Positions 16,219 through 16,908 of a stretch of 32,000 nucleotides of DNA are shown in pieces. Position numbers and translations under genes: made by a program. The notes below the pieces were generated by a model. That model did not search any database. It saw nothing but the letters and a program-made list of their open reading frames with translations, and was not told the DNA's origin. The stretch's first letter is position 1, and every line of letters begins with the position of its first letter. Source of the DNA: Mycobacterium terramassiliense (lineage in GTDB: Bacteria > Actinomycetota > Actinomycetes > Mycobacteriales > Mycobacteriaceae); the NCBI RefSeq assembly GCF_900157385.1, contig NZ_LT717700.1, positions 673,818 through 705,817 on the forward strand, read 5' to 3'.

Positions 16219-16908
16219 TTACACCTCGCGGCGCGGCGGGGCGAACACCTCGATCACGCCGTTGACCTCGCGAACCATCAGCGCGGGCAAGGGCTTTGGC
16301 GAGATGGGCAGCTGGTGGGTGAGCACCTTGCCACTGGGCGAGAACGACGTCGTGTGGCACGGGCAGCGCAGCGCGCCCTCCGGCGCGTCGAACCACAGCC
16401 GGCACCCCTGGTGCGTGCAGACGCCGGATACCGCTTCGGGTTTGCCGTCGACGCGGCGGACGAATCCGGTGACCGAGCCCAGGTCGAACGGGTGCATGAC
16501 GCCGTCGGGCACCTCCGAGCTGGCCGCGACGCGCTGCCAGCTTCCGTCGTAGGGCGTGAGTTCCCCGGCGACAGCCGGACCTTCGGCGGGGCTTTTCATC
16601 AGCGCCCGATCGATGGAGACCGCCGCCGCGGCGGCGGCCGCGGCCGCCGACGTGCCCACGATGACCTGGCGGCGCGTCGTGGGATGCCTGGTCGGCGCCG
16701 GCGCCGGCGCGCCGTTCATCTGCTCGGCGAGCCGGGCGTGCAGGTCGCTGAGGAACTCCTGCCGCGGCTCATCATCGCCCTGCCCGGCCGCGCGCAGCTC
16801 GATCGCGGTCCGGATCTGCGCGGCCTCGAAGTCGTCGGGCGCAAACGGCTTGGGCCGGCGGCCCCGCAACAGGTCGTCGACATAGCGGCGCAACCCTCGC
16901 GCGTTCAT
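16219..16908 (-). CDS. membrane-anchored Rieske [2Fe-2S] protein with an N-terminal cytoplasmic domain (candidate anti-sigma factor)
   Basis: The protein is 229 aa. The charged N-terminal ~75 aa are followed by TRRQVIVGTSAAAAAAAAAVSI, a Tat-like motif plus hydrophobic anchor. The C-terminal Rieske boxes are CTHQGC (aa 164-169) and CPCH (aa 182-185). The ATG overlaps the sigma-factor stop (ATGA at 16905-16908). Confidence 0.75.
   Translation of the reverse strand: MNARGLRRYVDDLLRGRRPKPFAPDDFEAAQIRTAIELRAAGQGDDEPRQEFLSDLHARLAEQMNGAPAPAPTRHPTTRRQVIVGTSAAAAAAAAAVSIDRALMKSPAEGPAVAGELTPYDGSWQRVAASSEVPDGVMHPFDLGSVTGFVRRVDGKPEAVSGVCTHQGCRLWFDAPEGALRCPCHTTSFSPSGKVLTHQLPISPKPLPALMVREVNGVIEVFAPPRREV

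Follow-up and report, generated by a model that had tools for sequence, protein, structure and literature searches.

A Rieske iron-sulfur protein of Mycobacterium terramassiliense as a putative anti-sigma factor with an exported sensor domain

A 32,000-nucleotide stretch of the Mycobacterium terramassiliense genome (contig NZ_LT717700.1, positions 673,818 to 705,817; hereafter the window) encodes a Rieske [2Fe-2S] protein whose gene begins within the stop codon of a gene for a sigma factor of the extracytoplasmic function (ECF) type. Comparison of this gene pair with its counterparts in other mycobacteria and in distant lineages suggests that the Rieske protein is probably the cognate single-pass anti-sigma factor of the adjoining sigma factor, with an exported Rieske domain as its sensor. 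This reading, already put forward in the initial annotation of the window, draws on the coupling of the two genes throughout the family, which persists down to about 40% identity, on a branch of paralogs in which the sensor has been exchanged, on the modular conservation of the protein, and on a DNA motif that recurs before the sigma gene and after the Rieske gene. Features and their coordinates are collected in Table 1.

Both conserved regions of an ECF sigma factor are recognized in the upstream open reading frame (ORF; Pfam Sigma70_r2, E=6e-9, and r4_2, E=1e-11), which also scores well above the cutoff of TIGR02937 (66.5 bits against 42.9). Its score against the BldN family model TIGR02952 lies below the cutoff (67.6 bits against 206), and results of a sequence search of the protein data bank (PDB) show that its nearest solved structure is BldN (6dxo_A, E=4e-13). 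By these scores the sigma factor appears to be a relative of the BldN family and not a member of it. At the junction, plus-strand positions 16900-16912 read ...gttcatcgctga..., and the minus-strand end of the sigma gene reads GGA GGT CAG CGA TGA AC. The ATG of the Rieske gene thus lies inside the sigma stop codon, as the initial annotation had reported, in a 4-nt ATGA overlap at 16905-16908. Residues 18-30 of the sigma factor, which precede region 2, carry a conserved (Y)PDWEAVYxDN motif that is common to the sigma factors of all distant systems, of both the Rieske and the non-Rieske type, and that may be a signature of this ECF group.

The sigma gene lies immediately 5' of the Rieske gene in all 80 Mycobacterium loci and directly 5' of it in all seven distant members examined, which share about 38-50% identity with the window protein (contigs of Amycolatopsis samaneae, P0178, and of metagenomic origin, P0220, P0188, P0258, P0242 and P0363). 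Start and stop codons of the sigma gene and its partner overlap in 90 of 91 extracted pairs (87 by 4 nt, three by 1 nt), the remaining pair being a wrong assignment by the extraction script. Other neighbours vary by lineage and none is kept beyond Mycobacterium as a constant partner, which leaves the sigma factor as the only one. The family itself is large (2216 database proteins at E<=1e-10) and matches 172 stretches in a collection of species-representative genomes. The host of the window is a slow-growing Mycobacterium, for which the best genome matches are Mycobacterium sp. 852002-50816, at 96% protein identity, M. paraense and M. interjectum, and the carriers include many non-tuberculous mycobacteria, among them relatives of opportunistic pathogens. 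In databases, family members are called 'Rieske (2Fe-2S) protein', 'ubiquinol-cytochrome c reductase iron-sulfur subunit', 'cytochrome b6-f complex iron-sulfur subunit', 'nitrite reductase/ring-hydroxylating ferredoxin subunit' or 'QcrA and Rieske domain-containing protein'.

The Rieske protein consists of three conserved modules joined by variable linkers, as is usual for single-pass anti-sigma factors. Its charged N-terminus of about 75 residues is followed, as the initial annotation had described, by a twin-arginine motif (T-T-R-R-Q-V-I-V, residues 77-84) and an Ala-rich stretch (SAAAAAAAAAVS / SAAAAAAAAAVSIDRAL), the anchor helix closing on its outer side with a conserved D-R/H pair. All elements named in the initial annotation lie at the coordinates that it gave. 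The NCBIfam model of the twin-arginine translocation (Tat) signal, TAT_signal_seq (TIGR01409), is matched barely above its cutoff (16.9 against 16.7). Among 30 diverse family members R79 and R80 are invariant; so, in the full-length alignment, are W124 and F141 as well as the cluster's four ligands and the pair of disulfide cysteines. Within Mycobacterium, mean identity is similar in the N-terminal module (N-module, 0.84), the RR/anchor segment (0.88) and the Rieske domain (0.85), and drops to 0.35 in the linker at 67-76 and to 0.52 in the juxtamembrane linker. The same profile is found between the window protein and distant members (0.46, 0.47 and 0.45 for the three modules; 0.09 and 0.20 for the two linkers). 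In a full-length AlphaFold2 model built from an alignment of 30 diverse relatives, the N-terminus forms helices at residues 3-14, 26-42 and 50-64 (predicted local distance difference test, pLDDT, of about 90), the anchor is of low confidence and the Rieske fold reaches a pLDDT of about 97.

The N-module belongs to a narrow and specific family, since a phmmer search of 1.84 billion representative proteins with residues 1-110 returns only 235 clusters at E<=0.001. Its consensus is xRRFVDxLLRxRRPxxF-x5-EAAxLRxAIxLRAARPGxxxPxxEFVxxLxxRLAxEL, with A35 and L56 invariant and L13, L38, P48, F52 and L60 nearly so; these residues give each of the three amphipathic helices a hydrophobic stripe. Residues 1-75 are charged and contain no Cys. 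This rules out the HxxxCxxC motif of the zinc-binding anti-sigma (ZAS) domain, whose absence the initial annotation had pointed out. The module is also unlike a class I domain, because it has three helices and no fourth before the anchor, and as modelled it would be either a distant relative of RsbN, the anti-sigma factor of BldN, or a further class of anti-sigma domain. An intact CxH...CxxH Rieske motif is present in 34 of the best 150 N-module matches, and the same check listed five non-Rieske matches and one frameshifted Rieske match. Among the matches that lack the motif are many fragments and frameshifted products, and several of them join sigma region 4 to the N-module, itself a record that the two adjoin in other genomes.

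A minority of N-module proteins (P0218, P0247, P0252 and P0207, from Acidimicrobiales and annotated as hypothetical) carry an unrelated C-terminal domain of about 100 residues and no Rieske domain. The gene for P0218 overlaps by 4 nt a sigma gene whose product shares the YPxWExVY N-terminal motif of the family, and a lipoprotein gene follows. These paralogs have the standard layout of an anchored anti-sigma factor. They score weakly, below the cutoffs, against two NCBIfam models, NF052375 'anti-sigma factor' (E=2e-8) and PRK13920 'putative anti-sigmaE' (E=4e-5), and two Rieske members align in register with the N-terminal third of NF052375 (P0209, E=0.003; the window protein, E=0.04). A 133-residue N-terminal fragment of one Rieske member bears the JGI label FecR. 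The N-module behaves, then, as a sigma-associated cassette that is combined with different sensor domains, which argues against its being merely the long n-region of a Tat signal; since it is kept, and kept overlapping a sigma gene, in paralogs that lack the Rieske domain, its function follows the sigma factor and not the cluster or the Tat route. The exchanged domain is beta-rich (GxIVAYxGxPSWVFMNV...), and a search of PDB sequences with P0218 returned no match. In both loci with such a paralogous system (L083 and L086) a Lipoprotein_15 gene lies shortly 3', and in L083 a TGTAAC motif stands just 5' of that gene.

A promoter-like motif stands before the sigma gene (P1) and recurs at the end of the Rieske gene (P2). 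Its first eight nucleotides, TGTAACCC, stand at 17471-17478 of the minus strand, 37 nt 5' of the sigma GTG, and again at 16216-16223, 26 nt 5' of the cupredoxin ATG. Across Mycobacterium the form TGTAACC-N8-TAT-N5-GG is found before the sigma gene in 80 of 80 loci and after the Rieske gene in 70 of 80. Positions 1-7 (TGTAACC), 16-18 (TAT) and 24-25 (GG) are invariant or nearly so in both sets, and positions 9-13 vary. The pattern GTAACC-N5-9-YTATYT has a single match in the window, P2, against 0.00 expected. The more relaxed YGTAAC-N9-TAY occurs 12 times in the seven distant loci (66 kb) against 0.13 expected, a number reached in none of 500 shuffles, and all of these occurrences lie in intergenic DNA beside the system and point either to the sigma gene or to a neighbouring gene. 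The promoter recognized by BldN is CGTAAC-N16-CGTTGA (PMC2375139), that of ShbA is CGTAAC-N16-CGATGA and that of SigD is GTAAC-N17-18-CGAT (PMC12019637). The -35 half of the motif agrees with that of all three. P1, with TGTAAC-N16-CGGTGA, matches the BldN/ShbA form well, and transcription would then start within a few nucleotides of the GTG. The motif is thus a candidate for the sigma factor's own promoter, which would provide autoregulation and a second entry point for the genes of the cupredoxin, the phosphoesterase and the membrane protein. A third copy of TGTAACCC at 24496-24503 (+) is probably due to chance, being part of a coding region and having no TAT element, and a scan of 14100-17700 for sigma-70 promoters and terminators found nothing.

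Some features of the motif are unusual for an ECF promoter. TAT or TAC stands exactly 9 nt after (T/C)GTAAC, and distant systems preserve it better than they do the candidate -10 element at N16-17 (CGGTGA, TGGCAT, TCGAC...); ECF promoters do not usually carry a conserved trinucleotide in their spacer. In the window's clade the cupredoxin ATG occupies motif positions 27-29, within the putative -10 region. That this ATG is coding follows from in-frame indels; many other loci have a second in-frame cupredoxin ATG 9-12 nt further on. TAT-N8-ATG/GTG is found in 60 of the 70 P2 loci, and about ten loci have instead a 5' leader with a GGAGGG Shine-Dalgarno sequence. A leaderless mRNA would accord with this fixed distance only with TAT in the role of the -10 element. 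An arrangement of that kind, with a leaderless cupredoxin mRNA and a Shine-Dalgarno leader on the sigma mRNA, was considered and not adopted, as it needs an 8-nt spacer. We know of no sigma-70-family holoenzyme that uses an 8-nt spacer after TGTAAC.

Pfam Rieske (PF00355) matches residues 123-197 with 52.3 bits against a gathering threshold of 20.3 (E=5e-14), and the two boxes read by the initial annotation, CTHQGC (residues 164-169) and CPCH (182-185), contain C164, H166, C169, C182, C184 and H185, all invariant in 30 diverse members. A Foldseek search bears out the fold: it returns 136 PDB matches at E<=0.001, and all 50 among the matches listed contain a Rieske domain. The best is the soluble domain of a Chlorobaculum bc complex (8hn2_A, E=5e-9); other near structures are Kuenenia kuste4569, Synechocystis PetC3 and the small subunits of arsenite oxidases (listed identifiers include 9rk4_A and 5cxm_A). 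The closest structures are small Rieske domains of the menaquinol type or resembling PetC3. In the Rieske proteins of bc1 and b6f complexes, a Ser two positions and a Tyr four positions after the second His form hydrogen bonds to the cluster and raise its potential. The corresponding segment here is H185-T-T187-S-F189, in which F189 is invariant and the +2 position is mostly A, T or S across the family. All NCBIfam equivalog cutoffs tried are missed widely, namely those of PetC (29 against 250), actinobacterial QcrA (17.4 against 275), the proteobacterial Rieske protein (24.8 against 97.4) and the small subunit of arsenite oxidase (25 against 96). No gene for a cytochrome b, a cytochrome c or a molybdopterin subunit adjoins the Rieske gene in the window or in 90 loci. 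The initial annotation had assigned the cluster to the high-potential bc1/b6f type. The part of this claim that stands is the disulfide pair, C169 and C184, whose invariance fits a presumed oxidising, extracytoplasmic location; the high-potential type itself is not established, because T187 and F189 replace Ser and Tyr and the respiratory equivalog models are missed by wide margins. From established Rieske biochemistry, an intermediate potential, of the menaquinol type or like that of PetC3, would be at least as likely as a high one.

Several results weigh against the anti-sigma interpretation. A profile of the N-module finds no solved anti-sigma factor among PDB sequences at E<=10 (its only match, to EF-G at E=0.23, is put down to chance), 34 N-modules scanned singly against Pfam at E<=10 match no anti-sigma family (zf-HC2, RskA, FecR, RsdA), and an isolated model of residues 1-75 (pLDDT 70) has no fold match in the PDB by Foldseek (best E=2.1). 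All matches to the NCBIfam anti-sigma models, NF052375 and PRK13920, fall below their cutoffs. The Pfam model TAT_signal misses its cutoff (14.7 against 22.7), and the anchor is weakly hydrophobic, with cleavage by signal peptidase possible. At the DNA level, the invariant TAT falls where the spacer should be, and canonical -35/-10 geometry would place the start from P2, in the window's clade, some 8 nt into the cupredoxin ORF, so that the promoter interpretation is incomplete. The cupredoxin, moreover, could simply be a partner to which the Rieske domain passes or from which it takes electrons. A Rieske protein and a cupredoxin are a classic electron-transfer pairing, and their genes, 21 nt apart here, are linked in 75 of the 80 Mycobacterium loci and again in the distant loci L087 and L088; the nearest matches in structure are soluble domains from Rieske proteins that transfer electrons, and the N-module matches no known anti-sigma domain. 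The protein could on these grounds be an ordinary exported electron carrier, a redox partner of the cupredoxin and perhaps of the metallophosphoesterase, whose gene belongs to the regulon and whose N-terminus is a long Tat n-region. We regard this as unlikely: the cupredoxin is missing from five of the seven distant lineages and the sigma factor from none; the N-module is as conserved as the Rieske domain and persists, overlapping a sigma gene, in paralogs without the Rieske domain; and an overlap of start and stop codons in 90 of 91 pairs marks an anti-sigma factor, not a regulon member.

A slightly less probable alternative keeps the sigma factor under the control of the N-module but makes export itself the switch. 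The anchor, Ala-rich and weakly hydrophobic, is like cleavable Tat signal peptides and is followed by small-residue sites such as S-P-A at 106-108. Since the Tat pathway proofreads cofactor insertion, export and cleavage could leave the N-module on a signal-peptide remnant that is soon degraded, freeing the sigma factor and reporting on iron-sulfur assembly and Tat capacity in place of an external cue. Respiratory Rieske proteins, however, keep their Tat signal as an uncleaved anchor, the non-Rieske paralogs have a standard anchored anti-sigma layout, the D-R/H pair at the outer end of the helix suggests a retained and functional juxtamembrane region, and no cleavage motif is conserved in the variable linker at 104-119. 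Far less credible than either is an iron-sulfur subunit of a bc1/b6f-type or arsenite-oxidase-type complex encoded elsewhere, an outcome for which the initial annotation had allowed. Some source annotations do name respiratory subunits, and the boxes carry the disulfide cysteines typical of them, but every respiratory equivalog score is far below its cutoff, no partner subunit stands beside the gene in any locus examined (90 loci), and the protein has one predicted helix against the three of actinobacterial QcrA.

If the Rieske protein is the anti-sigma factor of its neighbour, the following mechanism may be proposed. Residues 1-66 would sequester the sigma factor in the cytoplasm. The internal twin-arginine motif with its Ala-rich helix (residues 77-103) would send the folded, cluster-loaded Rieske domain through the Tat pathway and stay as its anchor, and the external domain (120-225) would report the state of the envelope through its cluster. 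A change in the cluster, whether of redox state, by damage or loss through oxidants, nitric oxide or copper, or by failed assembly, would destabilise the protein and lead to regulated proteolysis. Other mycobacterial membrane anti-sigma factors release their sigma factors through the site-2 protease Rip1 and Clp proteases, and intramembrane cleavage of the Ala-rich helix would leave a C-terminus of the Ala-Ala type, the kind of tag that Clp adaptors recognise. The freed sigma factor would transcribe its own operon from the TGTAAC-N16-CGGTGA promoter and, from the second motif copy, the genes for the cupredoxin, the Tat-exported metallophosphoesterase and the small membrane protein. In this scheme we only infer sigma binding, Tat export, the uncleaved anchor, proteolytic release and the nature of the signal. 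A broader proposal is more tentative still, and our doubt about it slightly outweighs our confidence: that in a whole protein family of Actinomycetota (more than 2000 sequences from Mycobacterium, Amycolatopsis and metagenomes) sigma activity depends directly on whether a Tat-exported iron-sulfur cluster outside the membrane is intact, or on its redox state, under threat from oxidants, nitric oxide or copper, and that exported metalloproteins (in Mycobacterium, a cupredoxin and a metallophosphoesterase) are switched on in this way, with an N-module that is a fourth kind of anti-sigma domain or a very distant relative of the RsbN class.

Three further genes follow on the minus strand. The cupredoxin matches Pfam Copper-bind (E=3e-11) and, below its cutoff, the amicyanin model TIGR02657 (E=6e-16); its copper site is amicyanin-like (C-S-I-H-P-M-M). 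Start and stop codons overlap by 4 nt at three of the four junctions of the five-gene cluster (14804-14807, 15727-15730 and 16905-16908, minus strand), which suggests translational coupling along a putative operon; the fourth, of 21 nt between the Rieske and cupredoxin genes, contains the second motif. The 3' genes recur in most of the 80 Mycobacterium loci (cupredoxin in 75, phosphoesterase in 74, membrane protein in 73), and upstream a FAD-dependent oxidoreductase is found in 60 and a methyltransferase in 13. The sigma promoter-like motif sits at the very end of the gene for the oxidoreductase that binds flavin adenine dinucleotide (FAD) and NAD in the window, and this oxidoreductase is not conserved in the distant lineages.

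Table 1. Features of the window and of distant loci (coordinates in distant loci are given with the locus prefix)
Feature	Coordinates	Strand	Remarks
ECF sigma factor, 178 aa	16905..17441	-	Sigma70_r2 + r4_2 (Pfam); TIGR02937 above cutoff
Putative anti-sigma factor with predicted exported Rieske domain, 229 aa	16219..16908	-	ATG start
Three-helix module, residues 1-66	16711..16908	-	putative cytoplasmic sigma-binding domain
Twin-arginine motif TTRRQVIV + Ala-rich anchor, residues 77-103	16600..16680	-	ends in conserved D100-R101
Rieske [2Fe-2S] domain, residues 120-225	16234..16551	-	ligands C164, H166, C182, H185; disulfide pair C169/C184
Promoter-like motif P1, TGTAACCCGAGCTGATACTTATCGGTGAAG	17449..17478	-	starts 37 nt 5' of sigma GTG; TGTAAC, N16, CGGTGA
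Promoter-like motif P2, TGTAACCCGCCGCCCTATCTCTTGGCATGG	16194..16223	-	overlaps Rieske TAA stop, runs into cupredoxin ATG
Cupredoxin (amicyanin-like) lipoprotein, 156 aa	15727..16197	-	lipobox LAGC; Met/Pro/Gly-rich linker; C-x2-H-x2-M copper site
Metallophosphoesterase with Tat signal MTRRQLI, 308 aa	14804..15730	-	Pfam Metallophos E=5e-11
Small hydrophobic protein, predicted membrane, 135 aa	14400..14807	-	from ORF list; no family significant (Pfam, NCBIfam)
FAD/NAD-binding oxidoreductase, 475 aa	17464-18891	-	ends 22 nt before sigma start
Non-Rieske paralogous systems	L083:1727-2985; L086:5641-6902		ECF sigma + N-module protein, all annotated hypothetical
Distant motif sites	L083:1088, 2992; L084:4203, 4315; L086:6960, 5507(-), 3017(-); L089:4262, 5824, 4204(-)

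Near the distant systems, a cupredoxin and a metallophosphoesterase are found only in L087 and L088, where they lie 5' of the sigma gene; the cupredoxin is not linked in five of the seven lineages, and the sigma gene is present in all of them. The genes that are divergent from or convergent on the distant sigma pairs differ and include a PF04185 phosphoesterase (L082:3131-4342 (-)), an LPG_synthase_TM protein (L086:4164-5408 (-)) and an unknown 472-residue protein (L081:2874-4292 (-)). In L086 and L081 a TGTAAC-N9-TAY site lies about 100 nt 5' of that neighbour and points toward it. The pattern of neighbours suggests that the putative regulon varies by lineage. In the cupredoxin of the window, the linker at residues 37-75 or so (15970-16090, minus strand; SGMPGMPGMSGMPSAPGP) is rich in Met, Pro and Gly and recalls Cu(I)-binding methionine motifs. 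Its core, MPGMPGMSGMP, belongs to the window's clade; at least four Met occur in 22 of 79 orthologues, and none in the L087 cupredoxin. A copper-sensing role argued from this linker was not adopted, as the linker is unconserved, and is kept as a hint. Together, the cupredoxin, its linker and a weak match to NCBIfam CopI (E=0.0075) make a connection with copper possible. Further along the window, two adjacent ORFs on the plus strand (11712-12623 and 12712-14382) have Gly-rich repeats and C-terminal DTG and DSGG motifs, the second with a PE-like N-terminus; they look like PE-PGRS proteins with an aspartic-protease-like domain.

ECF sigma factors and their anti-sigma factors are the third major mode of bacterial signalling, and to our knowledge the stimulus is unknown for most ECF groups. 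A sensor domain with a well-understood, spectroscopically distinct cofactor would make the question of perception directly testable. Should the proposal prove correct, an extracytoplasmic iron-sulfur sensor would join the known signalling repertoire, Tat export of a cofactor-loaded domain would be seen to be used in building a signalling protein, and an unrecognised sigma-binding module would be defined. Thousands of proteins that databases at present call cytochrome bc1/b6f subunits or ring-hydroxylating ferredoxins would also receive a corrected annotation. The putative regulon of exported copper proteins and metalloenzymes hints at a response to metal or oxidative stress at the cell envelope.

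A literature search found no paper that links a Rieske domain to an anti-sigma factor, co-occurrences of the terms being unrelated gene lists. The ECF re-classification paper says nothing of Rieske in its main text, although its supplementary listing of neighbours might still include such proteins. The initial annotation held that an iron-sulfur cluster as the extracytoplasmic sensor of an anti-sigma factor would be a novel mechanism; iron-sulfur anti-sigma factors as such have precedents: a redox-active metal centre already governs sigma release in Streptomyces coelicolor RsmA, which binds a [2Fe-2S] cluster, and in Mycobacterium tuberculosis RshA, for which an iron-sulfur cluster is reported (PMC3427169). 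What appears new is the exported Rieske sensor. RsmA and RshA, like the zinc-thiol proteins RsrA and ChrR, share with the window protein a redox-active metal centre in an anti-sigma factor, but they are soluble and cytoplasmic, with a Cys-ligated site in or beside the sigma-binding domain, and RsmA is a HATPase-type partner of a non-ECF sigma factor. In the window protein the centre is instead of the His/Cys Rieske type and belongs to a domain of its own, for which a position outside the membrane is predicted. All iron-sulfur sensors that we are aware of, including RsmA and RshA, operate in the cytoplasm.

The nearest analogy for the N-module would be RsbN of Streptomyces venezuelae, a class III anti-sigma factor in which flexible linkers connect three helices, followed by one transmembrane helix and an extracytoplasmic domain (PMC6101532; PDB 6DXO). 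In a class III domain helix 3 is clamped between sigma-2 and sigma-4. RsbN resembles neither class I nor class II anti-sigma domains, and its homologues are apparently limited to Streptomyces (PMC6101532). The likeness extends to the partner, as BldN is the closest solved sigma factor and the -35 sequence TGTAAC resembles the CGTAAC of BldN, and to the three helices with loop linkers predicted here. The two modules share no sequence similarity, however (PDB profile search, E<=10), the cytoplasmic part of RsbN has 117 residues against about 76 here, and its external domain is not a Rieske domain and has no known cofactor. The mycobacterial proteins RskA, RslA, RsmA and RsdA resemble the predicted layout of the window protein in their cytoplasmic sigma-binding helices, single transmembrane helix, external domain and co-transcription with the sigma gene. 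They differ in having class I domains, whose Pfam families the N-module does not match, RslA with a zinc HxxxCxxC motif, and none of them has a cofactor-bearing external domain or a twin-arginine anchor.

With the respiratory and stand-alone Rieske proteins (QcrA, PetC, cyanobacterial PetC3 and AioB), the window protein has in common its Rieske fold, its CxH...CxxH ligands and its disulfide pair and, by prediction, the twin-arginine-dependent insertion of a folded, cluster-bearing domain whose signal is kept as the anchor. In Streptomyces QcrA, too, the Tat motif is internal and follows cytoplasmic or membrane segments. In contrast to the respiratory proteins, no partner complex is encoded nearby, a conserved 66-residue module precedes the Tat motif, and the Ser and Tyr that raise the potential in bc1 and b6f complexes are T187 and F189. 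As predicted here, the system would thus combine a familiar arrangement, an ECF sigma factor with a single-pass anti-sigma factor, with an exported iron-sulfur sensor, a Tat insertion route and a sigma-binding module that would all be new.

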